The notes beneath the pieces were generated by a model. The model saw only the letters and a list, made by a program, of their open reading frames with translations. It was not told where the DNA came from and did not search any database. Positions 2,930 through 20,180 of a stretch of 38,223 bases of DNA are shown here, one piece after another. Source of the DNA: an uncultured Erysipelotrichaceae bacterium (lineage in GTDB: Bacteria > Bacillota_I > Bacilli_A > RF39 > UBA660); the NCBI GenBank assembly GCA_902783555.1, contig CACZRB010000073.1, positions 1-38,223 on the forward strand, in the 5' to 3' direction. Each line of letters begins with the position of its first letter. Position 1 is the stretch's first letter. Both the position numbers and the translations under genes were made by a program.

Positions 2930-3616
2930 ATGTGGTATGAGGATGGAATAATCTATTATTATACTAGTGCATATAACCCAAGTTTAAATAGTGATGCAGA
3001 ACAGATGTTTGGACTTCTTAGCAATTTATCAGATATATCTGGAATAAGGGATATTGATGTTTCAAATGTGATAAGTATGAAATATATGTTTGTAAGGTGT
3101 ATCAATTTAGTAGAAGCTGACTTAAGTAATTGGAATACTAATAAATTAACAAATATAGCTGCTATGTTTCAAATGGCTATCACTCCTGATGAAATGCATA
3201 ACTCAATAAATAATAAATTAAAAAGAATAATACTATCTGAAAACTTTACTTTTGATCCTAATGCTACAGAAACAGCAGTATGGCAATTTGCATCGGGTGC
3301 TATTAACTTAGAAGATTATGAATTTGTAAAATACATTGATGTAAGTAAAGCAAAATCACTTGGTAGTTTTTTTAGCAATAACAGAAAACTTAAAAATCTA
3401 AATGGGTTAAAAAACTGGGATGTATCTAATTCAACAGAATTTCAATTTATGTTTAAAGGATGCACATCATTAACTGATGCAAGTGCTATAAATAATTGGA
3501 ATATCAAATCTAATGCAAATTTTAGAGAAATGTTTCGTTATGCTCCTATTCATGCAAATTTTACAAAAATTGCTGGTACATGGAATAGTGTAGGCACTTT
3601 TGTACCTAATAGTTAA
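2930..3616 (+). CDS. Surface protein, C-terminal segment with DUF285/BspA-like (about 25-26 aa) repeats; same gene as 2163..2897 in another frame
   Basis: This frame is open from 2825 and reads ..VDEENIVSTDTSAYPIYMWYEDGIIYYYTS.., then repeats of the type DVSNVISMKYMF, DLSNWNTNKLTNIAAMF, LKNWDVSNSTEFQFMF and INNWNIKSNANFREMF. No RBS precedes ATG 2930. Confidence 0.75.
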   Translation: MWYEDGIIYYYTSAYNPSLNSDAEQMFGLLSNLSDISGIRDIDVSNVISMKYMFVRCINLVEADLSNWNTNKLTNIAAMFQMAITPDEMHNSINNKLKRIILSENFTFDPNATETAVWQFASGAINLEDYEFVKYIDVSKAKSLGSFFSNNRKLKNLNGLKNWDVSNSTEFQFMFKGCTSLTDASAINNWNIKSNANFREMFRYAPIHANFTKIAGTWNSVGTFVPNS

Positions 3617-5072: not shown

Positions 5073-7343
5073 ATGGATAAAAACTTACCTGTTTTACTAC
5101 TAAAAAAACTATCCCTTTTACCAACCCAAGAAGTCCGTTTAGAATTAAATAATGAATTATCTGAAAAAATAATAGATAAATCAATATCTACATTTGATAA
5201 GAAAATAATTGTAATTTTACCAAATAATTCTTTAGAAGAATCACCTACAATTACAGATTTACCTGAAATTGGAGTATTAGCTCAGGTTAAATCATGTGTT
5301 ATTCTTCCAAATAAGAATTATCGCATTGTTTTAAGAGGTTTAAATAGAATTAAAATTAATAAATATTCTAATTATAAAGAAGATAAAAGTATCTTAATTG
5401 CAAATATTAAAAGAATTTTTATTGAAAAAGAAGAAACTGTAGAACAAAAAGCGCTAAAAAAGAAAATTATTTCTCTTTTAAACAAATATATTTCAGTATC
5501 TAGTCAAACTTCAAATAGTATTTTATCTAAAATTAAAGATGATATTACTTTAGATATATTAACCGATTTAGTTGTTAATTTTTTAAAGTTTCCCATGGAA
5601 AAGAAACTTTTATATATGAATGAGTTTGATGAAACATTAAGAGCTAAAATGCTTATTAAAGACTTAAATATTGAACTTGAAGTAATTGAATTAAACAATA
5701 AAATTGATGAGGAAATAAGAGAGTCATTTGATAATGAGCAAAAAGAATACTTAATTAAAGCTAAAATTGATAAATTAAATGAAGAATTAGGTATAAAATC
5801 AACTAAAGATAGTGAAGTAGATTTATATTATCAAAAGGTAAAAGATTTAAATGTATCAGACAAAATAAAGAAAAAATTAGAAAATGAAATATCTAAATAT
5901 GAATATACTCCTAGTAATAATCCGGAAATTTCCGTAATAAGAAACTATATTGATACATTTTTATCATTACCATTCAATAAATCATCTAAAGAAGAAACTA
6001 AAGAAGAAAAAATTAGTAAAGTATTAAATGCATCTCATTATAAAATGGATAATGTAAAAAGACGTATTATAGAGTATGCTATTTTAAAAGAAAAAAATAA
6101 ATCATTAGAAAATCCTATTATATGTTTAATTGGTGCACCTGGTGTAGGTAAGAGTACCATTGCAATGGCTATAGCATCTTCCTTAAAGCGTGAATTTTAT
6201 AAAATAAGTGTTGGTGGATTAAATGATTCAGCTGAACTTATTGGGCACAGACGTACTTATTTAGGTGCAGCACCAGGAAAAATAATTGAGGCTTTAATAA
6301 AATGTGGAAATAATAATCCTGTTATCTTAATTGATGAAGTAGATAAAATGGTAAAGGATTATAAAGGAGATCCTGCTAGTGTTCTATTAGATATATTAGA
6401 TCCTAATTTAAATAAAGAATTTATTGATAATTATATTGAAGAACCTTTTGATTTATCTAATGTATTATTTATCTTAACTGCTAATGATATAGATGGTATA
6501 CCAGCTGTTTTAAGAGATCGATTAGAAATTATTACATTAGATAATTATACAGTTTTTGATAAAAAAGAAATTGCAGTAAACTATTTAATTCCAGATATTT
6601 GTAAAAAATATGGTATAAGAAAAATAAATCTTACTGATGATGAAGTTTTATCTTTAATAAAAGAATATACTAGTGAACCAGGTGTTCGTGAATTAGAAAG
6701 AACATTAGATGATATAATTAGGTATATGATTATTCATAATATTAAAGAAGAACCTAATTTAAAAGAAATACTTGGAAAGCCAAAGTTTATTTATAAAGAG
6801 CCACATAATCTAGTCGGAGAAGCTAATATAATTGGAGTATCTCCTTTAGGAGGATCATTAATTAAAATATCTTCTATTATGGTACCAATGATGTATGATT
6901 CTAATATTACTGGTAATATTGGAGAAGAATTAAGAGATTCTATTAAAGTAGTTCAAAGTTATTTAAAATCGAATAATTATATGGATTATAAAAAGAGTAC
7001 TAATGGAATTCATATTCATTTTGATACTCATAAATTTAAACTTGATGGTTCAAGTGGTTCTCTTGGAGTTGCTATGAGTTTATGTAGTTTATTTAGTAAT
7101 AAACAAATACCTTCTGATATAGCTTTTTTAGGTTCATTAGATTTATATGGAAGAATATTAAAAGTTGCTCGTCTTAGAGATAAAGTTATAACTGCATATA
7201 ATAATGGTATTAAAATGTTATTTGTCCCTTTAGATAATAAAGTAGATGAAGATGATATTCCAGAATTTATATTAAAAGAATTAAATATAATTTATGTTTC
7301 TTCTTTTGAAGAAGTATACAGTTTAATAATTAAAAAGAAATAG
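5073..7343 (+). CDS. lon: ATP-dependent Lon protease (LonA type)
   Basis: Has an N-terminal LON substrate-binding domain, Walker A GAPGVGKST and Walker B ILIDEVDKM. The protease domain has Ser in DGSSGS and Lys 43 residues downstream (LRDK), the same spacing I recall for E. coli Ser679 and Lys722. GGAGG at 5060-5064 favours ATG 5073 over the TTG at 5058 used by the ORF track. Confidence 0.92.
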   Translation: MDKNLPVLLLKKLSLLPTQEVRLELNNELSEKIIDKSISTFDKKIIVILPNNSLEESPTITDLPEIGVLAQVKSCVILPNKNYRIVLRGLNRIKINKYSNYKEDKSILIANIKRIFIEKEETVEQKALKKKIISLLNKYISVSSQTSNSILSKIKDDITLDILTDLVVNFLKFPMEKKLLYMNEFDETLRAKMLIKDLNIELEVIELNNKIDEEIRESFDNEQKEYLIKAKIDKLNEELGIKSTKDSEVDLYYQKVKDLNVSDKIKKKLENEISKYEYTPSNNPEISVIRNYIDTFLSLPFNKSSKEETKEEKISKVLNASHYKMDNVKRRIIEYAILKEKNKSLENPIICLIGAPGVGKSTIAMAIASSLKREFYKISVGGLNDSAELIGHRRTYLGAAPGKIIEALIKCGNNNPVILIDEVDKMVKDYKGDPASVLLDILDPNLNKEFIDNYIEEPFDLSNVLFILTANDIDGIPAVLRDRLEIITLDNYTVFDKKEIAVNYLIPDICKKYGIRKINLTDDEVLSLIKEYTSEPGVRELERTLDDIIRYMIIHNIKEEPNLKEILGKPKFIYKEPHNLVGEANIIGVSPLGGSLIKISSIMVPMMYDSNITGNIGEELRDSIKVVQSYLKSNNYMDYKKSTNGIHIHFDTHKFKLDGSSGSLGVAMSLCSLFSNKQIPSDIAFLGSLDLYGRILKVARLRDKVITAYNNGIKMLFVPLDNKVDEDDIPEFILKELNIIYVSSFEEVYSLIIKKK

Positions 7344-8825: not shown

Positions 8826-10601
8826 ATGGATCATATAAGAAATTTTTGTATTATAGCGCATATTGATCATGGTAAAAGTACTTTAGCTGATCGTATATTA
8901 GAAATAACAGGTGCTATAGATAAAAGAGAGATGAAAGATCAAATACTAGATAGTATGGATTTGGAAAGAGAAAGAGGTATTACAATTAAATTAAATGCTG
9001 TTGAACTACATTATAAAGGATACACTCTTCATTTAATTGATACTCCAGGCCATGTCGATTTTAGTTATGAAGTATCTCGTTCACTAGCTGCTTGTGATGG
9101 AGCTCTTTTAGTAGTAGATGCTGCTCAAGGAATTGAGGCTCAAACTCTTGCTAATCTATATTTAGCTTTAAATAATGATTTAAATATAATTCCCGTTATT
9201 AATAAAATTGATTTACCTAATGCTGATGTTCCTAAAGTTAAAAAAGAAATTATGGATGTTTTAGGATTTAGAGAAGATGAAATTCTTTTAGTATCTGGTA
9301 AAACTGGAGAAGGGGTACCTGAATTATTAGATGCTATAATTGAAAGAATAAATCCACCTAAAGAGTATATAGATAATAAAACAAGAGCCCTTATTTTTGA
9401 TTCTTATTTTGATTCATATCGTGGCGTTATAGCGTCAGTTTGCGTTAAATCTGGTGAAATAAAACGTGGAGATATGCTTATTATGATGAGTACTGGTGCT
9501 GAATATGAAGTAGTAGAAATGGGCGTAAATACTCCTAAAGAAAAACTAATTGATAAATTATCTACTGGGTCAGTAGGTTGGGTTTCAGGTAGTATTAAAA
9601 CAATAGATACCGTAAGAGTTGGAGATACCATTACAACTAAAGAAAATAGAGCAGATACTCCACTTTCTGGTTATAAAGCAATGAAGCCAATGGTTTATAG
9701 TGGAATATATCCAATTGAACCAAATAAATATGAAGCCCTAAAAGAAGCTTTAGAAAAGTTAAAATTAAATGATGCATCTCTTGTCTTTGAACCAGAAACT
9801 AGTGAAGCTTTAGGCTTTGGTTTTCGCTGTGGCTTTTTAGGACTTTTACATATGGATATTATTGAAGAGAGAATAAGAAGAGAATTTAATATAGATATTA
9901 TAGCTACTAGTCCTTCAGTTATTTATAAAGTTACTTTAACTAATGGAGAAGAAATAGAAGTAGATAATCCATGTGAAATGCCAGATAAAGTTAAAATAGA
10001 AAGTATTAGTGAACCATTCGTAAAAGCAAGTATTTTAGTACCAAGTTCATATATAGGACCAATTATGGAATTATGTCAAGATAAACGTGGGATATATAAA
10101 ACAACTGAATATATTGATAGTACTAGAGTTAATATAATTTATGAGCTTCCACTAGCTGAAATAGTTTATGATTTCTTTGATAAATTAAAAAGCTATACTA
10201 AAGGTTACGCATCATTTGATTATGAATTATCAGATTATAAAGTTAGTAATTTAGTTAAAATGGATATTCTAATTAATGGAGAAGTAGTTGATGCTCTTAG
10301 TATAATAGTTCATAAAGATGCAGCATATTCACGTGGTATGCAAATAACTAAATCACTTAGAACTCTAATTCCAAGGCAATTATTTGAAGTACCTATTCAA
10401 GCATCTTTAGGTTCTAAGGTAATAGCTCGCGAAACTATAAGCGCCATGAAGAAAAATGTTTTAGCTAAATGTTATGGTGGAGATGTTACAAGAAAAAGAA
10501 AACTATTAGAAAAACAAAAAGAAGGTAAAAAACGTATGAAAATGGTAGGATCTGTTGAAGTACCACCAGAAGCATTCTTATCTGTTTTAAGTAATAATTA
10601 G
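8826..10601 (+). CDS. lepA: Translation elongation factor 4 (LepA)
   Basis: [35 protein letters not shown]-motifs and the LepA C-terminal domain ([25 protein letters not shown]). Confidence 0.97.
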
Positions 10602-10608
10602 GAGGATT

Positions 10609-10938
10609 ATGGCAAGTTTTGAAGATTTTTTAAAATTAGACATTAGGGTAGGCACTATTATAGAGGCTAAAGTTTTTGAAAAGGCTAAAAAGCCTGCTTA
10701 TCAATTGAAAATAGATTTAGGTAGTAAAATAGGTATTAAAAAAACATCTGCTCAAATTACAAATCTATATAAACCAGAAGATTTAATTGGCAAACAAGTT
10801 TTAGCTGTTGTAAATTTTCCTCCTAGACAAATTGCTGACTTTATGAGTGAAGTTTTAGTACTAGGAACTTATAGTGAAGGTGGAGTAATTTTAATAACTC
10901 CTGATAAACCAGCCCAAAATGGAGATAAATTAGGTTAA
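10609..10938 (+). CDS. csaA: tRNA-binding-domain protein, CsaA-like
   Basis: Collinear with my recollection of B. subtilis CsaA: FEKLDIRVGTI, AYQLKIDLGS.IGIK.SSAQIT..YKPE.LIGKQV.AVVNFPPR.IA.F.SEVLVLG. Confidence 0.85.
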   Translation: MASFEDFLKLDIRVGTIIEAKVFEKAKKPAYQLKIDLGSKIGIKKTSAQITNLYKPEDLIGKQVLAVVNFPPRQIADFMSEVLVLGTYSEGGVILITPDKPAQNGDKLG

Positions 10939-10939
10939 T

Positions 10940-11479
10940 ATGAGATGTAAATGGGTAAACTTAAATAATCCCCTATATATAGAATATCATGATAAGGAAT
11001 GGGCAGTTCCTTCTTATTCTGATAGATATTTATTTGAAATGCTAGTATTAGAGAGCTTTCAGGCTGGGCTTTCTTGGGAATGTATCTTAAATAAAAGAGA
11101 AAGTTTTAGAGAATCTTTTGATAACTTTGATTATAAAAGGGTTGCTAATTATAATGAAGAAAAAATTATTAATCTTATGAATAATCCTAATATAATAAGA
11201 AATAAATTGAAAATTATATCTGCTATTAATAATGCTAGAATCTTTATGAATATTCAAAAAGAATATGGCTCTTTTTCAAATTATATATGGCATTTTACAA
11301 ATAACAAAATTATTAAAAATGTTGATGATAATTTTAAAACTACTTCTAGTTTATCAGATGAAATAAGTATTGATTTAAAAAAGCGTGGAATGAAGTTTGT
11401 GGGAAGTACAATTATCTACTCTTATTTACAAGCCATAGGAGTTATAAATGATCATGAACTTAATTGTGCTCTTTATTAA
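10940..11479 (+). CDS. tag: DNA-3-methyladenine glycosylase I
   Basis: MRCKWV...PLYIEYHDKEWAVP...LFEMLVLESFQAGLSW..IL.KRE..R..F, a C-terminal FVG.TI.YS.LQA.G..NDH and the Cys/His zinc ligand pattern, as in E. coli Tag. Confidence 0.92.
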   Translation: MRCKWVNLNNPLYIEYHDKEWAVPSYSDRYLFEMLVLESFQAGLSWECILNKRESFRESFDNFDYKRVANYNEEKIINLMNNPNIIRNKLKIISAINNARIFMNIQKEYGSFSNYIWHFTNNKIIKNVDDNFKTTSSLSDEISIDLKKRGMKFVGSTIIYSYLQAIGVINDHELNCALY

Positions 11480-12596: not shown

Positions 12597-12630
12597 TAAT
12601 ACTTGTATGATAGTTAATAATTGTTGTATA

Positions 12631-12660
12631 ATCACACTATAGAGTAGGTGTGATTTTTCT
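12631..12660 (+). terminator. Rho-independent terminator after hemW
   Basis: Stem ATCACAC/GTGTGAT with a 10-nt loop, followed by TTTTCT. Confidence 0.65.
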
Positions 12661-12744
12661 ATGGAAAAAAGAAATAGATTAATAGCAGCATTTTCAATAT
12701 TTGCATTAGTATTACTTATGGTAGGAATAACATATGCCATTTAA
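12661..12744 (+). pseudogene. Remnant of the signal-peptide end of a TYAYF-family surface-protein gene
   Basis: Encodes MEKRNRLIAAFSIFALVLLMVGITYAI*. This is the family n-region, h-region and GITYA motif, but it stops at the cleavage-site motif. There is no RBS (it directly abuts the terminator) and no downstream similarity. Confidence 0.5.
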
Positions 12745-12852
12745 CTTCATTATATTTAAGCATATTGGTTACAAGTTCTACAAAAACATGGCTAACTATA
12801 TATGAGCGTATAGTTCTATTTCTTATACAAAATTAATATTATTAATAGATAC

Positions 12853-12880
12853 TTGAAAAAAATATGATTTATGATACAAT
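12853..12880 (+). promoter_or_regulatory. Promoter with extended -10 (TTGAAA-16-TGaTACAAT)
   Basis: TTGAAA at 12853-12858, TG at 12872-12873 and TACAAT at 12875-12880. RBS AAGAGGT precedes ATG 12905. Confidence 0.55.
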
Positions 12881-12904: not shown

Positions 12905-14296
12905 ATGAAAATAAAATATTTTTTATTTGGAATACTAACTAGTTTAAGTTTTGCTACAATAGTAAATGCTGCAACTCTAGAACTTAAAACTGATGATAAA
13001 TTAGTAATTAATGAAAAGAATAATATAAAAGTATATGTAAATTTAAAATTGGATGAATCTGAAGAATTGGAAAATATTTCTTTTGATTTAGACTTTAATA
13101 GTGAATTATTAACTATTAGCGCCGTCGAAAATGAAAATGGATATGCCCAAGTTTATAAAGCTGGTACAGCCCAATTGTATAATGCTAAAGATTTTATAGA
13201 TGGTACAGTTATGTCATTTAATGTTACAAATATTTCATCAGAGGATGGTACAGCTCAAATTGGTATTAAAAATATTAAAGTAAAACATAAAGACGAAGAA
13301 GTTAAAGAATTAGAATATGAAGTTAAGCCTTTAAATGTTACTTTAAAAAAAGAGGTAACAACTACAACTAGAGCTTTAAATACAAGTGCTGAATTAAAGG
13401 GAATTAAACTTAATAATAATGCAACATTAAAACCAGCTTTTTCTAAAGATATAACAGAATATAAAATATATATTAGTAAAGATACTATTAAACAAGTTAC
13501 CATATCTCCACAATTTGAACAAAGTGGTGTTCAAATGGAAGTAGAGTGTACTTTAGGATGTACTCCAGTAGATAACGCTATGAATAAGTTAAACTTAGTT
13601 ATTGGAAAAAATGAAGCTACGTATACATTTACTTCAGAAGATGGTAAAGATAAAAAAGTTTATAAATTCATAATATATCGTGGTGCTACTACTGATGGAT
13701 CAAATCTACTAGCAGATTTAAAAATTGATGGATATGAAATAAAAGAAAAATTTGATAAATCTAAATTGGATTATACCGCAACAGTACCATATTCTACTGA
13801 AAAATTAACTGTTGTAGCTACCCCAGAAGATTCTAATGCCGATGTTAGCATAAAGGGAAATGATAGCTTATCAGTTGGTGAAAATGTAATTACAGTTACA
13901 GTTACTAGCACAGAAACTGAAGAGAAAAAAATCTATAATATTACCGTTACTAGAGAAGACTTTGTTCCAGATGAAGAAAATACTACTGCTGTAACCCCTA
14001 AGATTGAAAAAACAGAACTACCTAAAAAGAATAATAATATAAAACTTATTATTATAATTGGTGTAATTAGTACACTTATTATAGGAGTAGCAGCATATTT
14101 TATATTCTTCTATAAAGGAAAGAATAAAAAGAATAAGTCTAAAGATACTAATTTAGAAGTAAATAATACTCCTAAAATTCAAAATTCATTAATTGATGAA
14201 GACATTGAACCAACTAGTGTAGATGATGCACTTAAAGATTTAATGGCTACTAAAGAAATGAGTGAAATTGATGATGAAACTACTTTAAATAAGTAG
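12905..14296 (+). CDS. Secreted, C-terminally TM-anchored surface protein with two cadherin-like beta-sandwich repeats
   Basis: Sec signal peptide with VNA/A cleavage. Two repeats fit the Cadherin-like (PF12733-type) pattern: AELKGIKLNNNATLKPAFSKDITEYKIYI... and LADLKIDGYEIKEKFDKSKLDYTATVPYSTEKLTVVATPEDSNADVSIKG...GENVITVTVTS...KIYNITVTRE. One TM helix (IKLIIIIGVISTLIIGVAAYFIFF) is followed by a K-rich, then acidic, cytoplasmic tail. The N-terminal domain may be cohesin-like, with low confidence. Confidence 0.8.
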   Translation: MKIKYFLFGILTSLSFATIVNAATLELKTDDKLVINEKNNIKVYVNLKLDESEELENISFDLDFNSELLTISAVENENGYAQVYKAGTAQLYNAKDFIDGTVMSFNVTNISSEDGTAQIGIKNIKVKHKDEEVKELEYEVKPLNVTLKKEVTTTTRALNTSAELKGIKLNNNATLKPAFSKDITEYKIYISKDTIKQVTISPQFEQSGVQMEVECTLGCTPVDNAMNKLNLVIGKNEATYTFTSEDGKDKKVYKFIIYRGATTDGSNLLADLKIDGYEIKEKFDKSKLDYTATVPYSTEKLTVVATPEDSNADVSIKGNDSLSVGENVITVTVTSTETEEKKIYNITVTREDFVPDEENTTAVTPKIEKTELPKKNNNIKLIIIIGVISTLIIGVAAYFIFFYKGKNKKNKSKDTNLEVNNTPKIQNSLIDEDIEPTSVDDALKDLMATKEMSEIDDETTLNK

Positions 14297-14369
14297 GTTT
14301 TTACATTTAATTAAGTCTTTAAATTTCTATTATTATGTTATATAATATTTATAGAATAGGAGAGTATAA

Positions 14370-16064
14370 ATGAAAAAAGGTTTTATTGCTACAACGTTAA
14401 TATATTCTTTCTTTTTAATATTTTGTGCTGTCTTATTAAGCTATATTGGTATTAGTATGCATAATAAAAATTTATTAAATAAGGCTAATGAAAATATTAG
14501 AAATGATATTGCTGAAAAAATTGTTGGAAATATAGATATTGGTTCTTTTGTAACATTAGATTTATCTACTTCATTAGTTGATACTAAAGATGTAGATTGG
14601 ATAGTTTTTAATAATAGTAATGGAGTTACAGAATTAGTATCTTCTGCAATAATATTTTCTAATGATGATATTGATTATATAAAAAATAATGTTCAATCAT
14701 TTCATAATGCATGTTTATCTAAAACTACAAGAATATTATCACATGATGATTTATATACAATTATTAAAAATAACGTTAGTACCATAAGAATGTTAAAATC
14801 TATAGTAAATGTTGATAATGCTAATAATAGTATCGATTATTTACTAGTTAATGGTAATAATGTTGAAAAATATACTTTTAATGAGCCAAGTAGTGATACT
14901 ATATCATTAAATGAATATATATCTGCAGTTCTAGCAGACAGTAATATAAGTACATATAATACTGGTGATAATATGAATGTTAGATTAGTAATAACTATTC
15001 CTAATAATATAAAAATAATAGGTGGTAGTGGAAGCTCATCTAATCCATATCGTATTTCAACTAGTACTTGTTATGAAGATATGTCTTTAGTTAATAAAAT
15101 TATTGGTAATGGCTATGATAATAAGAATAATTATACTATTCCGGGAGTAGATGTATCTATAAGAGATGAAGGATTACGTACTACACAAGATGATTATGGA
15201 ATCAGCTATTATTTTAGAGGAACTGTGGATAACAACTATTTATTATTTGCTGGTAAATGCTGGAGAATAGTAAGAATTACTGGTAATGGTGCCATAAAAT
15301 TAATACTTTATAATAATAATAATAGCAATTGTAATATTTCGGATAATTCAGGCTATATTATGGAAAATAGTCAACCTATTTTAAGTGCATATAATGCTAA
15401 TTCTAATAGTAATACCTATATTGGTTTTATGTATAATGTTAATGGAACAAATTATACTCAAACTCATACTAATACTAATGATAGTACTATACTTCAAAAA
15501 TTAAAAGTTTGGTATGATGGTGCATTTTCTAATGAGCAAAAGAATAAACTTGCTGATGTTATTTGGTGCAATGACAAATCTATTAATACCTCCCTTTATA
15601 ATGGTTATGGTAGAAATACTACTTATTATTTAGGTGAAAAAAGAGGAAATGATCCAACAAATAATCCTCCTTCACTAATATGTCCATCATCTAATGATAC
15701 AACAAAAAAACTATCTAAATTCACTGGCTCTGATACTATTAATGGTAATGGCTCTTTAAAAGGGTATAAAGTTGGAATTTTAACCGCCGATGAAGTAGCG
15801 TATGCCGGCCTTAGTGGCAATAACAATACTAATAATCCAGCAAGTTCGTATTTACTTCAAGGGGCATCTTTATCATGGTGGACATTGACCCCAAGATATT
15901 TTAATACAAATGCATTTATTTATTATGTAAATAATGTTGGTAGATTAAACTCAACTAATGCAAATGTTAATAATACTATTAGTATTCGTCCATCTATAGC
16001 TCTTAATGCTAATACATTAGTTACAGGTGCTGGTACTATTAATGATCCATATGTGGTACAGTAG
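14370..16064 (+). CDS. Large pseudopilin-like protein (ComGG-like GFI N-terminus without Glu+5) with conserved four-Cys C-terminal domain
   Basis: The N-terminus MKKGFIATTLIYSFFLIFCAVLL resembles minor-pseudopilin leaders such as my recollection of B. subtilis ComGG (RGFIYPAVL). The C-terminal ~327 aa (nt 15081-16061) are paralogous to 16637-17635. RBS AGGAGAG. Confidence 0.8.
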   Translation: MKKGFIATTLIYSFFLIFCAVLLSYIGISMHNKNLLNKANENIRNDIAEKIVGNIDIGSFVTLDLSTSLVDTKDVDWIVFNNSNGVTELVSSAIIFSNDDIDYIKNNVQSFHNACLSKTTRILSHDDLYTIIKNNVSTIRMLKSIVNVDNANNSIDYLLVNGNNVEKYTFNEPSSDTISLNEYISAVLADSNISTYNTGDNMNVRLVITIPNNIKIIGGSGSSSNPYRISTSTCYEDMSLVNKIIGNGYDNKNNYTIPGVDVSIRDEGLRTTQDDYGISYYFRGTVDNNYLLFAGKCWRIVRITGNGAIKLILYNNNNSNCNISDNSGYIMENSQPILSAYNANSNSNTYIGFMYNVNGTNYTQTHTNTNDSTILQKLKVWYDGAFSNEQKNKLADVIWCNDKSINTSLYNGYGRNTTYYLGEKRGNDPTNNPPSLICPSSNDTTKKLSKFTGSDTINGNGSLKGYKVGILTADEVAYAGLSGNNNTNNPASSYLLQGASLSWWTLTPRYFNTNAFIYYVNNVGRLNSTNANVNNTISIRPSIALNANTLVTGAGTINDPYVVQ

Positions 16065-16072
16065 GTGATAAA

Positions 16073-17638
16073 ATGAAAATAAGAAATAATAAAGGTTTTG
16101 TTATGATAGAAACTATTATTGTTATGAGCATTCTTGCCTTAGGGTTAATATCATTATATACATCTTATGTATTAATAATGAAAAGAACTCAAAATAGTAA
16201 TAGTGATAGTGCTACAAATACTTATATTGCATATCAAATTAATAACTATAAGATTTATGAATATGCATCTAATATTGATACACCATATTATGTAGAAATA
16301 TATAGACTAGGTAATTATTATTTAAAAAGGGACTGTGGTATTTTAGGTGAAGCTATAACATGTAGTGAATCAACTGTATTAGATACTGAAGAAATAAATA
16401 TATTTTTAAATTTAAATATAGAAAAAATATATTATATAACTAGGACTTTAAGGGATGTATTTGATGATAATATAATTCTTTTATTTGATGGAAGTACAAT
16501 AAATTATTTAAATAAAATTAAAAATGATGTTTATATTAATAATAGTGCTGAAAGAACTGTTATAGTTAAAACTAAGGAAAATTCTGAAACTAAATTTTCA
16601 TTTTATCAGCAAGAAACTAATTATGAAACTAAAAATATTAGAAGAATACTTCTTGGCGAAAATAATAGTAATGTTTCTAATGCAGTAACAGTTCCAGGTA
16701 TTAGTTTATCTAATGCAAGTGAAAATGTTATAGCAACAACTATGGATGATAGTGGTTTAAGTTATTATTACAGAGGAAATGTTCAAAATAATTATTTAGT
16801 ATTTGCTAATATGTGCTGGCGAATAGTAAGAATAACAGGGAATGGTTCAATAAAATTAGTCCTATATAATGCTAATGATGATTCTTGTAATATTAATAGT
16901 TCTAGTTTTGCCTTTGCTAAGTATAATAATGTTTCCAGTACAACAGTGTTTAATTTAAATTCTGCCTATAATAGTTATATTGGTTATATGTATAGTGATA
17001 AAGCAAATTCTAATGATTATTCAGAAAATCATTTAAATAATAAAGATAGTACAATTTTGACAAGATTAAAAGGATGGTATGACAATAAATTTTCTAATAA
17101 TGAGAAAAAGTTATTAGCTGATGTGATATGGTGTAATGATAAAAGAGTAGTAGCTTCAGTATCTTATAATCCTAATGGGTTACAAAATCTAAGAGGTACG
17201 GGTGTAAAAAATGATGCTTCTTATTATCAAACATCTATGAGAATTAATCCATATACAAGTTCTAATCCAACTCTTTCATGCGGTGGAGGAGACAATGCTA
17301 TTTCTAAGTTTACTTCATTTTCTAATTTAAAGGGTTATAAAATAGGTTTACTAACTGCCGATGAAGTAGTCTTTGCAGGTTCTAATGCTAATGCTAGTGG
17401 GACGAATAATACTTATTATTTATATCAAAATGCCCAAAGTAATCGTTATTGGACTATTAGCCCTGCATATTTTAATGGTAGTAATGCATTTATGTGGATT
17501 GTTAATCGTAATGGCGTTTTAACTACTACGAATGTTAATGATGATAGTATTGCTTTAAGACCAGCAATTGCATTACTTCCATCAGTAAACGTAATTGGAT
17601 CTGGGACAGCAAATGATCCATATATAGTTATTGAATAA
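16073..17638 (+). CDS. Large type IV pilin/pseudopilin-like protein (canonical prepilin cleavage/methylation motif) with conserved four-Cys C-terminal domain
   Basis: MKIRNNKG/FVMIETIIVMSILALGLISLY fits the class III signal consensus (K/R)G-F(T/V)(L/M)IE, with Glu at +5. It lies 8 nt after the previous stop and has RBS AGGTGA. Shared C-domain motifs: YY(F/Y)RG.V.NNYL.FA..CWRIVRITGNG.IKL.LYN, DSTIL..LK.WYD..FSN..K..LADVIWCNDK, LKGYK.G.LTADEV..AG, IRP.IAL, G.GT.NDPY.V. Confidence 0.85.
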   Translation: MKIRNNKGFVMIETIIVMSILALGLISLYTSYVLIMKRTQNSNSDSATNTYIAYQINNYKIYEYASNIDTPYYVEIYRLGNYYLKRDCGILGEAITCSESTVLDTEEINIFLNLNIEKIYYITRTLRDVFDDNIILLFDGSTINYLNKIKNDVYINNSAERTVIVKTKENSETKFSFYQQETNYETKNIRRILLGENNSNVSNAVTVPGISLSNASENVIATTMDDSGLSYYYRGNVQNNYLVFANMCWRIVRITGNGSIKLVLYNANDDSCNINSSSFAFAKYNNVSSTTVFNLNSAYNSYIGYMYSDKANSNDYSENHLNNKDSTILTRLKGWYDNKFSNNEKKLLADVIWCNDKRVVASVSYNPNGLQNLRGTGVKNDASYYQTSMRINPYTSSNPTLSCGGGDNAISKFTSFSNLKGYKIGLLTADEVVFAGSNANASGTNNTYYLYQNAQSNRYWTISPAYFNGSNAFMWIVNRNGVLTTTNVNDDSIALRPAIALLPSVNVIGSGTANDPYIVIE

Positions 17639-17653
17639 AGGAGAATATGAATT

Positions 17654-18061
17654 ATGAGTTTAGATATGTTTATTGAATATATATCAAGGTTATATGATGG
17701 GGATAATTTGTCTTTAGAAGAATTAAAAAATCTTGATATTAAAGCTAGTAGTTTAATAGATTTAATGGAAAAAGATGAAATTGATTATGATACACAAAAC
17801 GCTATAGATTTATATATATCATATTTTGATGGTGAACGTTATTTAGATGGTGAAAAAACTAAGAATGTTTTAAATTACTATCGAATTATTGAAGATAAAA
17901 ATAATAAAAAATTAGCTGCTGAAAAGGAAAATAAAACTAGAACATTACGTATTAAACCAATTAATAGTGATGGAGTTATTAGTGCAGTAACTATTATTGA
18001 AGCTGTAGTTGTAATTGGAATGCTATTAGCATTTTTAACTCTTGCTTTACTTAAAATATAA
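17654..18061 (+). CDS. Tail-anchored small protein (acidic soluble N-domain, single C-terminal TM helix), unknown function
   Basis: 135 aa. RBS AGGAG at 17639-17643 lies 10 nt from the ATG. The C-terminus GVISAVTIIEAVVVIGMLLAFLTLALLKI is a terminal TM segment. I recognise no family. Confidence 0.65.
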   Translation: MSLDMFIEYISRLYDGDNLSLEELKNLDIKASSLIDLMEKDEIDYDTQNAIDLYISYFDGERYLDGEKTKNVLNYYRIIEDKNNKKLAAEKENKTRTLRIKPINSDGVISAVTIIEAVVVIGMLLAFLTLALLKI

Positions 18062-18091: not shown

Positions 18092-18631
18092 ATGGATATA
18101 TTAAATGAAACTGAAACTAAAATGAAAAATGCAATTTCTGCAATGGAATCAAGATTTTTAAATGTAAGAGCTGGGCGTGCTAATCCTGCTATGCTAAATG
18201 GTATTATGGTAGAATACTATGGGGCTCCAACACCACTTCAAAGTTTAGCTAATATTACTGTTCCAGAAGCAAGACAATTATTTATTAAACCATTTGATAG
18301 AGGAATATTAAAAGATATTGAAAGAGCTATTAATGAAGCTAATTTAGGAATTACGCCAACTAATAATGGTGAAATGATAATTTTAACTATTCCTGAACTT
18401 ACTGAAGAAAAGAGAAAAGAATATGTTAAACAAGTAAAATCTATTGCAGAAGAAACTAAAATAGCTTTACGTAATGCCAGAGAAGATGCCAGAAATAATA
18501 TAAAAAGACAAGAACTTCCTGAAGATGAAACTAATTCTTATTATGATGATATTCAGGATTTAATTAATGAATATAATAAAATAATTGATGAAAAGAGTAA
18601 AGTTAAAGAGCAAGAGTTAATGACTGTATAA
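18092..18631 (+). CDS. frr: Ribosome recycling factor
   Basis: R.GRANP..L..I.VEYYG..TPL.Q.A.I.VPE.R.L.I.P.D, LG..P.NDG and LTEE.R...VK are all characteristic of Frr. It lies 30 nt after the preceding gene. Confidence 0.95.
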   Translation: MDILNETETKMKNAISAMESRFLNVRAGRANPAMLNGIMVEYYGAPTPLQSLANITVPEARQLFIKPFDRGILKDIERAINEANLGITPTNNGEMIILTIPELTEEKRKEYVKQVKSIAEETKIALRNAREDARNNIKRQELPEDETNSYYDDIQDLINEYNKIIDEKSKVKEQELMTV

Positions 18632-18660
18632 GCTTGGCAATGTATTGCTAAGCTTTTTAT
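18631..18660 (+). terminator. Rho-independent terminator after frr
   Basis: Stem AGCTTGGCAAT/ATTGCTAAGCT (one G-U pair) followed by TTTTT. Confidence 0.8.
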
Positions 18661-18712
18661 TGAATTTAAATTTTGATTATAATATAATTATATAAAATAT
18701 AGGATGATTAAA

Positions 18713-18958
18713 ATGTATAGAAAAGAAAAAAATATAATAATTGTAAGTGTTATAGCACTAATGCTAATGTTAATTGGAGTAACATATGCGTACTTTAGTG
18801 CTAGAATTATAGGGAAAAATTCTACTAGTACAATTAGTGTGACATCTGGTAGGATGGAAATACATTATTCAGAAGATAATAATACTATTAGCATTAGTAA
18901 TATCTATCCAAGAAAAGAAGCATGGATAACAAAAAAAAATAACTCTTACAGGATATAA
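18713..18958 (+). CDS. Surface protein, N-terminal segment (SipW-type-like signal peptide), truncated by a frameshift in an A9 tract
   Basis: MYRKEKNIIIVSVIALMLMLIGVTYAYFSARI... AGGATGA at 18701-18707 favours ATG 18713 over the track start at 18704, in the same frame. The frame ends 6 codons after the A-run. Confidence 0.8.
   Translation: MYRKEKNIIIVSVIALMLMLIGVTYAYFSARIIGKNSTSTISVTSGRMEIHYSEDNNTISISNIYPRKEAWITKKNNSYRI
18931..18939 (+). repeat. Homopolymeric A9 tract at the frame junction of the 18713-20180 gene
   Basis: Nine consecutive A (c-AAAAAAAAA-t). The downstream frame is open from 18930. Removing one A joins ..EAWITKK to ITLTGYNTTDQDMYYELGFN.., matching the paralog ..EALVTKTITITGTNTTDLQMRYDLGIN... 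Confidence 0.9.
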
Positions 18959-18974
18959 TACTACTGATCAAGAT

Positions 18975-20180
18975 ATGTATTATGAATTAGGCTTTAATAT
19001 TTCAACTAATACTTTTAAAAAAGGTGAATTAATATTAAGCTTGACTGGAATTGGTGATAATGGTTCGAAGATATCAGATATAACATCAAAATCAATAGTA
19101 GGTCATGATAGGTTTTTTAGAATTGGAACTGGGCACTTTAGCCAATCTGATGGAGATACGCACATATATGAATTGAAGATATTCTTCAAAGATACTGGAA
19201 AAAATCAAAACTATAATCAAAATGCTGTATTTAATGCTCAAATAAATACTATTGAGTCTCATAGCGATTTAGTAACCTTTAAACAACTTCAAGATGCAAC
19301 TGTAAATGAAACAGCATGTAAGGAGTACTTTTCTGAATATTCAAGCTATTTCTCAGAAGAAGATTTTACAACTATTTGTACTGGAGGAACAATTAACTTT
19401 ATGGGGAATAATATAAGTGTTGTAAGCTATTTTGGAAATGAATATGAATCATTAATCGAAAATGGTGTTATAAGTGATCCTATTTTTAGTGAAACTGAGA
19501 CTCCAAAAATCGGAACCAATTTTACTGAAGGAATTTATAATTATTCTTATAATGATAATGGTTGGGTGGTATCATTAGCTGACCCATCTTCAACTGCTCC
19601 AATAACAACTGCTCCAAGGGTAAGCATTAATGGAGAAAAAATTACCACATTAGCTTCCTTATTTTATGAAAGCGCTGCTACTAGTATTGATTTAAGTACA
19701 TTTGATACGTCAAATATAACAAATATGGCATCTATGTTTAGGGCTAGCCATGCTACAAGTTTAGACTTATCATATTTAGATACATCAAACGTAACAAACA
19801 TGACATATATGTTTAGTTCCAGCTACGCTACAAGTCTAGATTTATCATATTTAGATACTTCAAACGTAACTAATATGACATATATGTTTGCACACTGTAA
19901 TGCTTCAATTTTGGATATAAGTTCCTTTAACACATCAAATATACCATCTAAGGGTGGAGTAAATAGAATGTTTGCAGACTCACCAAACTTAGTAACAATA
20001 TATGCATCTAATAATTTTAGACTTGTGCCTGAGGTTTCAGGTGATGATTATGTATTTGAAAATTCAACTGCTATAGTAGGCGGTAGTGGAACTACTTATG
20101 ATTCAAATAGAATTAGTAGAAATTATGCTCATATAGATGGAGGAGTTTCTAATCCGGGATATTTTACTTTAAAAACTTAA
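18975..20180 (+). CDS. Surface protein, C-terminal segment with DUF285/BspA-like 25-aa repeats (continuation of 18713..18958)
   Basis: The rest of the family N-domain (YELKIFFKDTGKNQNYNQNAVFNAQI) is followed by tandem units ATS(I/L)DLS.(F/L)DTSN(I/V)TNM(A/T)(S/Y)MF. No RBS precedes ATG 18975. Confidence 0.8.
   Translation: MYYELGFNISTNTFKKGELILSLTGIGDNGSKISDITSKSIVGHDRFFRIGTGHFSQSDGDTHIYELKIFFKDTGKNQNYNQNAVFNAQINTIESHSDLVTFKQLQDATVNETACKEYFSEYSSYFSEEDFTTICTGGTINFMGNNISVVSYFGNEYESLIENGVISDPIFSETETPKIGTNFTEGIYNYSYNDNGWVVSLADPSSTAPITTAPRVSINGEKITTLASLFYESAATSIDLSTFDTSNITNMASMFRASHATSLDLSYLDTSNVTNMTYMFSSSYATSLDLSYLDTSNVTNMTYMFAHCNASILDISSFNTSNIPSKGGVNRMFADSPNLVTIYASNNFRLVPEVSGDDYVFENSTAIVGGSGTTYDSNRISRNYAHIDGGVSNPGYFTLKT
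19677..19901 (+). repeat. Three tandem 75-bp (25-aa) coding repeats, with a fourth degenerate unit from 19902
   Basis: Units start at 19677, 19752 and 19827. Units 2 and 3 are near-identical at the DNA level (GCTACAAGT(T/C)TAGA(C/T)TTATCATATTTAGATAC(A/T)TCAAACGTAAC...ATGACATATATGTTT). Confidence 0.85.

Follow-up and report, generated by a model that had tools for sequence, protein, structure and literature searches.

A conserved frr-linked cassette of putative modular minor type-4 pilins with predicted C-type-lectin-like heads in uncultured Bacilli

The DNA analyzed here, hereafter the window, is a stretch of 38,223 nucleotides (nt) from an uncultured Erysipelotrichaceae bacterium (GTDB lineage Bacteria; Bacillota_I; Bacilli_A; RF39; UBA660), covering positions 1 to 38,223 of contig CACZRB010000073.1 in assembly GCA_902783555.1. 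Upstream of the ribosome recycling factor gene frr, it carries three genes, here called 14370, 16073 and 17654 after their first positions, which recur as one unit in related genomes. Two of them encode proteins with pilin-like N-termini and a common C-terminal head, which on the evidence of structure models is an expanded C-type-lectin-like domain of the DUF6273 type, and the third encodes a small tail-anchored membrane protein. With moderate confidence, we favor the reading that 14370 and 16073 are modular minor type-4 pilins which, with 17654 as their dedicated membrane partner, form an adhesive tip complex. No paper describing the cassette was found, and its proteins carry at most generic prepilin or pseudopilin labels in the sources. 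An earlier sequence-only reading of this DNA did not recognize it as a described system. This holds for the cassette itself, which is undescribed, but the design principle is already known and matches published modular pilins (PMC8179133, PMC9934059). The cassette and frr are laid out as follows (aa, amino acids).

14370-16064, + strand: gene 2, "14370", 564 aa; N-terminal module (N-module) at 14370-15074, head at 15075-16064
16073-17638, + strand: gene 3, "16073", 521 aa; N-module at 16073-16630, head at 16631-17638 (aa ~190-521)
17654-18061, + strand: gene 4, "17654", 135 aa; C-terminal transmembrane (TM) segment
18092-18631, + strand: frr, ribosome recycling factor; TIGR00496, E 1.1e-56

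Together with the cadherin-like gene 1 upstream (12905-14296), these genes had been described as four co-oriented, tightly packed open reading frames (ORFs), and the ORF analysis reproduced their coordinates, the sizes of 564 and 521 aa and the intergenic gaps of 73, 8 and 15 nt; frr begins 30 nt past gene 4, and a Shine-Dalgarno-like motif is present at each of the four genes. Locus contexts in other genomes were obtained by exact-protein look-ups and one scan of species-representative genomes, and compared by BLASTP. Wherever the flanks of a related locus were long enough (L001-L007, L009 and L013-L017), the order was Glu5-less pilin-like protein, pilin with glutamate at mature position +5 (Glu5), small tail-anchored protein and frr; of these, the short contig L008 covers just the Glu5 pilin and tail-anchored genes. 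Across loci, neighboring genes of the trio either are 1-33 nt apart or overlap by 1-7 nt. The same order is found again in nine or more distinct related loci with protein identities of 31-57%, which speaks against a chance arrangement. The source metagenome-assembled genomes (MAGs) are labeled as uncultured Erysipelotrichaceae (rumen RUG11246 and RUG11168), uncultured Bacilli (Hadza gut) and Bacilli bacterium (GCA_028709545.1), and all cassette loci have a GC content of 25-29%. The expectation that the genes are linked and kept together was thus borne out by the neighborhood comparison. Nevertheless, the conserved unit beside frr comprises three genes and not four, because what precedes the trio differs between lineages: the cadherin-like gene is replaced elsewhere by a sortase with a VWA/MucBP adhesin or by unrelated genes, and the proposed four-gene module had to be given up. 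One species with short forms of the proteins was seen on 168 contigs in public assemblies. The short contig L008 (CAVIQT010000070.1, 4.4 kb, 28.6% GC) comes from a bin that bears the name Phocaeicola vulgatus, but it was almost certainly misbinned and belongs to a low-GC Bacilli genome.

Of the two pilin-like proteins, 16073 has the canonical start. Its N-terminus reads MKIRNNKG/FVMIETIIVMSILALGLISLY, that is MKIRNNKG/FVMIETIIV, with an 8-aa leader, Phe+1 and Glu+5. Among 17 full-length orthologs with 44-70% identity, all intact N-termini start with (K/N)GF(V/I/A)xxETIIV, and Gly8, Phe9, Glu13, Thr14, Ile15, Ile16 and Val17 are fixed in the 16 that were aligned at full length. A profile of the N-module retrieved 178 further proteins, and all 120 of those listed are short (113-272 aa); the GFxxET motif was present in 35 of 35 N-termini examined of these short relatives, and in a 27-sequence alignment of them its Gly, Phe, Glu and Thr do not vary. 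The textbook prepilin leader noted earlier is therefore invariant at Gly-1, Phe+1 and Glu+5 in 16 full-length orthologs and 26 short relatives alike. Scored against TIGR02532, 16073 reached 16.3 bits, exactly the cutoff of 16.3, and two short orthologs reached 19.4 and 18.7 bits; with Pfam N_methyl (PF07963), 16073 scored 16.5 bits against a cutoff of 21.2. Its top named match was ComGE (NF041013; E 5.7e-7, 29.5 bits, cutoff 49), and ComGF (13.4 bits, cutoff 80) and ComGC (12.9 bits, cutoff 75) also matched, with only about 60 N-terminal residues aligned. Overall, the top named matches were ComGE, ComGF and ComGD, each below its cutoff. The AlphaFold2 (AF2) model of 16073, computed from a 69-sequence alignment (predicted local distance difference test score, pLDDT, 91), predicts a helix at residues 7-41, a small alpha/beta module up to residue ~180 and the head at 190-521; modeled separately, residues 1-186 (pLDDT 87) gave helices at 7-39 and 47-59 and, after them, beta hairpins. 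When all six frames of the window were scanned for pilin-type N-termini, 14370 and 16073 alone matched.

The second pilin-like protein, 14370, begins with MKKG/FIATTLIYSFFLIFCAVLLSY, i.e. MKKG/FIATTLIY, and thus has a leader of 4 aa. Its N-module consists of this leader, an invariant hydrophobic helix, FIAT(S/T)LIYSFFL, and a globular part of ~200 aa ending in VRLVI..I.GG.G...NPY. Across nine orthologs, Gly4, Phe5 and nine more N-terminal residues are fixed, the family start (K/N)GF(I/V)A(T/S)(T/S)L(I/L)Y(S/T)FF is nearly invariant, and position +5 is Thr or Ser and never Glu (9/9). The leader without Glu+5 that had been read from the letters is accordingly as described. An exhaustive HMMER search among 1.84 billion representatives found just 105 clusters (50% identity) for the N-module, with lengths falling into three groups of 212-258, 387-487 and 548-599 aa, which makes this a small, clade-restricted family whose carrier repeatedly gained different binding-type domains. 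Of eight mid-length relatives that were scanned, five match Laminin_G_3, with scores above the Pfam cutoff of 27.6 in two (P0392, 35.6 bits; P0403, 29.2 bits), and three have no Pfam match; one 825-aa relative (P0459) carries Big_2. The gene contexts of the distant relatives P0414 and P0459 gave no information. We also considered whether the N-module could be a shrunken DUF6273 domain. An hhalign comparison covered its last 33 residues only (E 9e-5, probability 60%), which is suggestive but does not establish it.

With regards to the heads, the similarity between 14370 and 16073 (44% identity, E 1e-80) is confined to the C-terminal ~330 aa. For the N-modules, no homology was detected beyond the hydrophobic helix, and hhalign paired a 33-residue terminal motif only. 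The earlier description of two paralogs consequently applies to the C-terminal ~330 aa and not to the N-terminal modules. Searching with 16073 returned more than 1200 relatives (clusters at 90% identity), all of them unnamed metagenomic proteins. Invariant features of the family are four Cys and the motifs CWRIVR and GLLTADE. Most members of this head family have a different N-terminus, typically signal-like and ending in ..(S/T)YA(Y/F)F.., and because the same C-terminal domain follows such varied N-termini, the head is a promiscuous extracellular domain with the pilin N-terminus as one of several carriers. On the level of profiles, 14370 scored 19.0 bits against DUF6273 (PF19789; cutoff 23.5) over its last ~55 residues only, 16073 has no match, and several orthologs have a precomputed PF19789 match. 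A Foldseek search of the 16073 AF2 model against the PDB gave one significant match, 9qa6 (E 3.7e-6, 322 columns, probability 1.00), the IgA peptidase (IgAse) of Thomasclavelia ramosa, and the aligned length corresponds to its N-terminal domain, annotated as DUF6273. Matches among viral models (BFVD) were DUF6273 and phage tail-fibre proteins. No sequence similarity between the head and the T. ramosa domain was detectable by hidden Markov models (HMMs), and the fold assignment as an expanded C-type-lectin-like domain of the DUF6273 type is made from the predicted structure. In the literature, the IgAse N-terminal domain is described as C-type-lectin-like in an expanded form, with a relationship to the C-terminal domain of Legionella Lcl (PMC12402451, PMC12237041), and DUF6273 domains of phage receptor-binding proteins are likewise called C-type-lectin-like (PMC10743442).

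The length variation among related loci explains the unusual size of the two proteins. Headless forms occur in L007, L009 and L013 (14370-type 234-260 aa, 16073-type 169-211 aa, the range given for short forms reaching down to 154 aa), L006 combines a long 14370-type protein with head (597 aa) and a short 16073-type protein (172 aa), and in L016 and L017 the 14370-type proteins of 435-443 aa end in Laminin_G_3, a ConA-like lectin domain. As short relatives are headless and others bear different heads, the large size is due to the grafted ~330-aa head. To speak of giant pseudopilins of an undescribed kind, as had been done, was overstated, since the graft follows the published modular-pilin design (PMC8179133, PMC9934059). 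Moreover, in accordance with the definition of modular pilins (Raynaud et al. 2021, PMC8179133), the head also occurs in non-pilin proteins including the T. ramosa IgAse, and carriers exist without it.

Some further observations concern the head family beyond the cassette. Several copies apparently occur in one genome, as P0014, P0036, P0042 and P0073 all list one and the same contig of 472,561 nt as their longest. The (S/T)YA(Y/F)F N-termini of head paralogs (P0019-P0120) resemble TasA/camelysin-type SipW signals, and one lineage may thus display the same C-type-lectin-like head both on pilin modules and on an unrelated scaffold, TasA-like proteins with SipW-type signals. The SipW label is provisional, because eight full-length non-pilin head paralogs gave no NCBIfam match at E<=0.01 and only an 84-aa ORF of the window (18704-18958, + strand) reaches TIGR04088, the model for SipW-dependent signals (19.2 bits, cutoff 19). 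Targeting of the heads by a diversity-generating retroelement (DGR) was considered and rejected: the window contains neither a template/variable repeat pair nor a reverse transcriptase, and its only repeats are the two paralogous head-coding regions with 71-76% nucleotide identity.

The third protein, 17654, lacks a signal peptide; its N-domain is predicted to be helical and cytoplasmic, and its C-terminal TM segment at aa 114-132 is preceded by a conserved Gly. Comparison with Pfam, NCBIfam and PDB sequences gave no family match above noise, in agreement with the earlier description of a 135-aa tail-anchored protein of no known family. Orthologs lie immediately 3' of the Glu5 pilin in L001, L002, L005, L006, L008, L009, L013 and L016.

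The pairing of a Glu5-less with a canonical pilin, both modular, invites comparison with known systems. Modular pilins, in which a functional domain is grafted onto a carrier pilin module, are widespread and have been proposed to sit at filament tips (PMC8179133); for those with lectin or vWA heads, the location at pilus tips is experimentally established (PMC8179133, PMC9934059). Closest to the cassette is the PilA/PilB/PilC set of S. sanguinis, with adjacent genes for a Glu5-less pilin and canonical pilins of ~50 kDa (PMC8179133, PMC9934059), in which a linker joins a short pilin module to an adhesive one, namely vWA in PilB and a ConA-like lectin in PilC. The tip complex that these three are proposed to form binds glycans and host proteins (PMC9934059), and some 14370 relatives bear a Laminin_G_3 head that is ConA-like, as in PilC. 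In contrast to S. sanguinis, no sequence homology to which was detected, the Glu5-less subunit of the cassette is itself modular, the genes lie away from pil/com loci, 17654 has no counterpart there, and a C-type-lectin-like head of the DUF6273 type is not listed among the published modular-pilin architectures. The K subunits of the GspK/PilX type (from the HIJK tip) and ComGG share with 14370 a leader ending in Gly, the missing Glu5 and a size above that of their neighbors. All of them are expected to be filament caps, because no subunit above them can be neutralised (PMC9934059). However, 14370 has no T2SSK or ComGG match at E<=1, genes for I, J and H partners are missing nearby, and its globular part looks unrelated, with no more than a terminal motif shared with DUF6273-type domains. 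CofB and TcpB are likewise minor pilins of 400-520 aa whose extra C-terminal domains mediate binding at the tip (PMC8179133), but they belong to diderm T4b systems, are encoded inside the pilus operon, carry beta-repeat or beta-sandwich domains and have no Glu5-less modular partner. The ComGD-GG proteins are comparable as minor pilins of the Bacilli type from monoderms; they have class III leaders and assemble into a tip complex (PMC12153270), and ComGE is the top named match; unlike them, the cassette proteins score below the curated cutoffs, are much larger, are encoded outside the comG operon and carry lectin-like heads. Finally, the head shares its ~300-aa expanded C-type-lectin-like fold with the T. 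ramosa IgAse (9qa6) and phage DUF6273 proteins, which come from the Erysipelotrichales lineage or from gut phages. The IgAse is a sortase-anchored protease that has the domain behind its Sec signal, whereas in the cassette it is fused to pilin modules; in phages, it sits on tail proteins and can be a DGR target.

From the S. sanguinis-like features of the modular pilins, we propose a capping role for 14370 and the role of its Glu5 partner for 16073. A prepilin peptidase encoded elsewhere would cut both proteins after the Gly. Lacking Glu5, 14370 would enter first and cap the filament, as is the case for GspK, PilX-type subunits and S. sanguinis PilA, and the Glu5 subunit, 16073, would dock underneath. 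The two lectin-like heads would then be exposed at the tip of a Com-type or type-4 pilus (T4P) filament, where they may bind a glycan or another host, dietary or microbial ligand, and 17654 probably holds or primes the 14370/16073 pair in the membrane. An adhesion role, as suggested earlier, is plausible.

A number of results weigh against such a tip complex. To our knowledge, none of the known type-4 filament systems includes a tail-anchored protein like 17654. Concerning the folds, Foldseek of the 16073 N-module against the PDB returned nothing at E<=0.001 and no pilin in the top 50, and sequence-profile searches of the PDB with the three conserved parts gave nothing significant, with no more than geopilin N-termini at E ~0.1. 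With no pilin-fold match for the N-module, the pilin assignment depends on the N-terminal class III motif and the helix. Failure of the N-termini in the signal models had been named earlier as grounds for refutation, and this applies in part: 16073 stands at the TIGR02532 cutoff and below that of Pfam N_methyl, and 14370 fails all of them, having no match to N_methyl, ComGG, GspK/T2SSK or any other pilin model in Pfam/NCBIfam at E<=1. Ligand binding by the head is an extrapolation from related domains, as the homologous N-terminal domain of the IgAse is dispensable for catalysis and has no known function (PMC12402451, PMC12237041).

The assembly machinery is the most conspicuous gap. Among all window ORFs of at least 80 aa, no T2SSE ATPase, T2SSF platform protein or A24 peptidase was found; with 10 kb added on either side (~57 kb), the search for a prepilin peptidase, ATPase, platform or major pilin was still negative, which upholds and extends the earlier remark that the window has no type-4 machinery. 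The same machinery genes were missing within 10 kb of the cassette in ~15 related loci. In Erysipelotrichales, comG loci are reported to be vertically inherited, and to be flanked by efp in Bulleidia (PMC12786226). A search by efp synteny found no comG beside efp in two long contigs of related MAGs; the only find was an orphan canonical pilin in L022. There, a textbook 145-aa pilin (MKKENGFTLVELLAVIV..) and a pilin-like neighbor of 151 aa lie downstream of gyrBA (5643-6627). In L010, a 16073-like pilin of 184 aa is followed by a canonical N_methyl pilin of 201 aa (9992-11151), adjoining ruvAB and far from machinery. Since orphan pilin genes are common in related genomes, machinery acting in trans is plausible but unproven.

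The same gap leads to the alternative of membrane display with no filament involved, the second option of the earlier reading. Cleaved or not, the pilin-like helices would anchor the heads, perhaps bundled with the TM segment of 17654, and the cassette would be self-contained, with no need for ATPase or platform. This agrees with the absence of machinery in cis at every locus, the position among housekeeping genes and always beside frr, the conserved third membrane protein foreign to type-4 filament systems, the N-module fold without a match to known pilins and the apparently small genomes (contigs of 0.73-1.1 Mb). A mere anchor, however, would not need Gly-1, Phe+1 and Glu+5 to be held over deep divergence, the pairing of Glu5-less and Glu5 subunits is typical of filament tip complexes, and pilin genes distant from their machinery are common, as L010 and L022 illustrate. 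Because the invariant residues are hard to explain for an anchor, we regard display without a filament as unlikely, though it deserves to be kept in mind. A more daring version, which we consider rather improbable, is a minimal display device: the small genomes would be devoid of the ATPase and platform, be it by loss or from the outset, and both pilins with 17654 would form a membrane stub or short fibre presenting interchangeable lectin heads.

Alternatively, the two proteins could be relocated minor pilins of the Com system (T4dP), equivalent to ComGG and ComGE/ComGF and serving mainly DNA uptake, with the heads as lineage-specific decoration. The top named HMM matches are indeed ComGE, ComGF and ComGD, a four-subunit minor-pilin complex caps Com pili (PMC12153270), and comG is widespread in Erysipelotrichales. 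Yet the ComG scores lie far under the curated cutoffs (29.5 vs 49; 18.6 vs 80) and come from the N-terminal helix only, 14370 has no ComGG match, the globular parts are 2-4 times the size of those of ComG minor pilins, and no com genes lie nearby. As the C-type-lectin-like, Laminin_G_3 and Big_2 heads also point to ligand adhesion, a primary role in DNA uptake appears quite doubtful. Chance juxtaposition or mis-annotation would mean that unrelated surface proteins acquired pilin-like leaders by accident in an AT-rich genome. While the low GC content, the richness of the proteins in Ile, Asn and Lys and the N_methyl result (under the cutoff for 16073, absent for 14370) would suit such an accident, motif and synteny are kept in the distinct loci at the identities given above, and the six-frame scan singled out precisely these two N-termini, so that this explanation is effectively refuted.

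If the proposed tip complex exists, it would be a clade-wide, vertically conserved tip of an adhesion organelle in abundant uncultured gut and rumen Bacilli, the binding specificity of which would be retuned by swapping heads between none, C-type-lectin-like, ConA-like lectin and Ig-like. Compared to the known systems, the new elements would be the DUF6273-type head as pilin cargo, the modular Glu5-less cap, the tail-anchored partner and the fixed frr-side position away from machinery. Modular pilins would thereby gain a new head, the expanded C-type-lectin-like domain common to the IgA protease N-terminal domain and phage receptor-binding proteins, and for the T. ramosa IgA protease this would hint at surface or glycan targeting by its N-terminal domain. 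The small tail-anchored protein would co-evolve with the pilin pair. Should the genomes turn out to be without machinery, the question becomes what pilin-like proteins do without a pilus.

Upstream of the cassette, the window contains gene 1 and the signals that delimit the putative transcription unit. All genes of the window (~26% GC) lie on the + strand.

12630-12655, + strand: terminator-like hairpin 3' of hemW; 9-pair stem, then T run
12853-12880, + strand: promoter-like site 5' of gene 1; TTGAAA-16-TACAAT with extended TG, a consensus match only
12905-14296, + strand: gene 1, cadherin-like, 463 aa; assigned by PF12733 and hydropathy
18630-18655, + strand: terminator-like hairpin 3' of frr; 11-pair stem, then T run

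The hemW gene (TIGR00539, E 1.7e-91) precedes the four ORFs, and the hairpin behind it is the upstream boundary of the transcription unit. Terminator-like sites on the + strand are limited to this one and the one after frr, in line with the earlier statement that no terminator occurs before the end of frr, and frr may be co-transcribed with the cassette. The product of gene 1 has a signal-like N-terminus, two Cadherin-like stretches (PF12733, 80.9 bits against a cutoff of 24.2, E 9.7e-23), a TM segment at aa 382-400 by hydropathy and a cytoplasmic tail of ~60 aa. Pfam match and hydropathy thus agree with the description of a Sec-type, C-terminally anchored protein with two cadherin-like repeats. 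An ortholog with 66% identity exists in L002/L003, and other genes take this position in L001, L005, L007, L009, L013 and L016: a sortase and a 2038-aa VWA/MucBP protein in L001 (1306-8148), a 573-aa VWA/GBS104-like-Ig/MucBP protein and a sortase in L005 (2608-5140), and a SpoVID-like LysM protein with a 290-aa protein in L007, L009 and L013-L016. The cadherin-like gene is a separate adhesin in a variable slot.

Several minor observations relate to this slot. The GBS104-like Ig domain of the L005 adhesin is a tip-pilin domain, and in L001 and L005 a sortase-dependent adhesin stands beside type-4-pilin-like genes. In most short-form loci, a SpoVID-like LysM protein (~221 aa), an unannotated protein of ~290 aa and an opposite-strand hydrophobic ORF (61-69 aa) lie upstream of the trio, and such a set was located at the following positions.

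L005, 762-2394: LysM/~290-aa/small-ORF set
L007, 7446-9135: the same set
L009, 5923-7630: the same set
L013, 7422-8946: the same set
L016, 6868-8551: the same set

This set is not present in the window; it may be connected with sporulation or the envelope. In the window, the interval from the hemW terminator to the promoter-like site contains a 27-codon ORF, MEKRNRLIAAFSIFALVLLMVGITYAI* (12663-12746, + strand), which resembles a lone signal peptide (..GITYA..) of surface proteins with SipW-type signals and may be the remnant of an earlier occupant of the adhesin slot.

The window ORFs outside the cassette are housekeeping or surface-protein genes. They encode YhcG, a cation efflux protein, DUF285/PARCEL proteins, pyrimidine nucleoside phosphorylase, Lon, an AAA_14 ATPase and LepA; a tRNA-binding protein, Tag, HrcA, GrpE, DnaK, PepF, DnaJ, signal peptidase I and HolA; and HisS together with two class-II aminoacyl-tRNA synthetases of the aspartyl/asparaginyl type, a HAD-family protein and GatCAB. 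Regulatory RNAs and tRNAs were not found in the window. The segment 28935-29583, ~650 nt located 5' of hisS/aspS, is without an ORF of at least 80 aa and has no Rfam match at the gathering threshold; this is a place where one might expect a T-box leader. Downstream of frr, the 84-aa ORF with the SipW-type signal is followed after 16 nt by a 401-aa DUF285/PARCEL-repeat protein (18975-20180, + strand). The equivalent in L001 is a single gene of 543 aa, which makes it probable that a stop codon or frameshift divides the window copy, be it as a pseudogene, by phase variation or through an assembly error. A comparable pair, a 244-aa protein and a 228-aa DUF285 protein, is found at 2163-2897 and 2930-3616.

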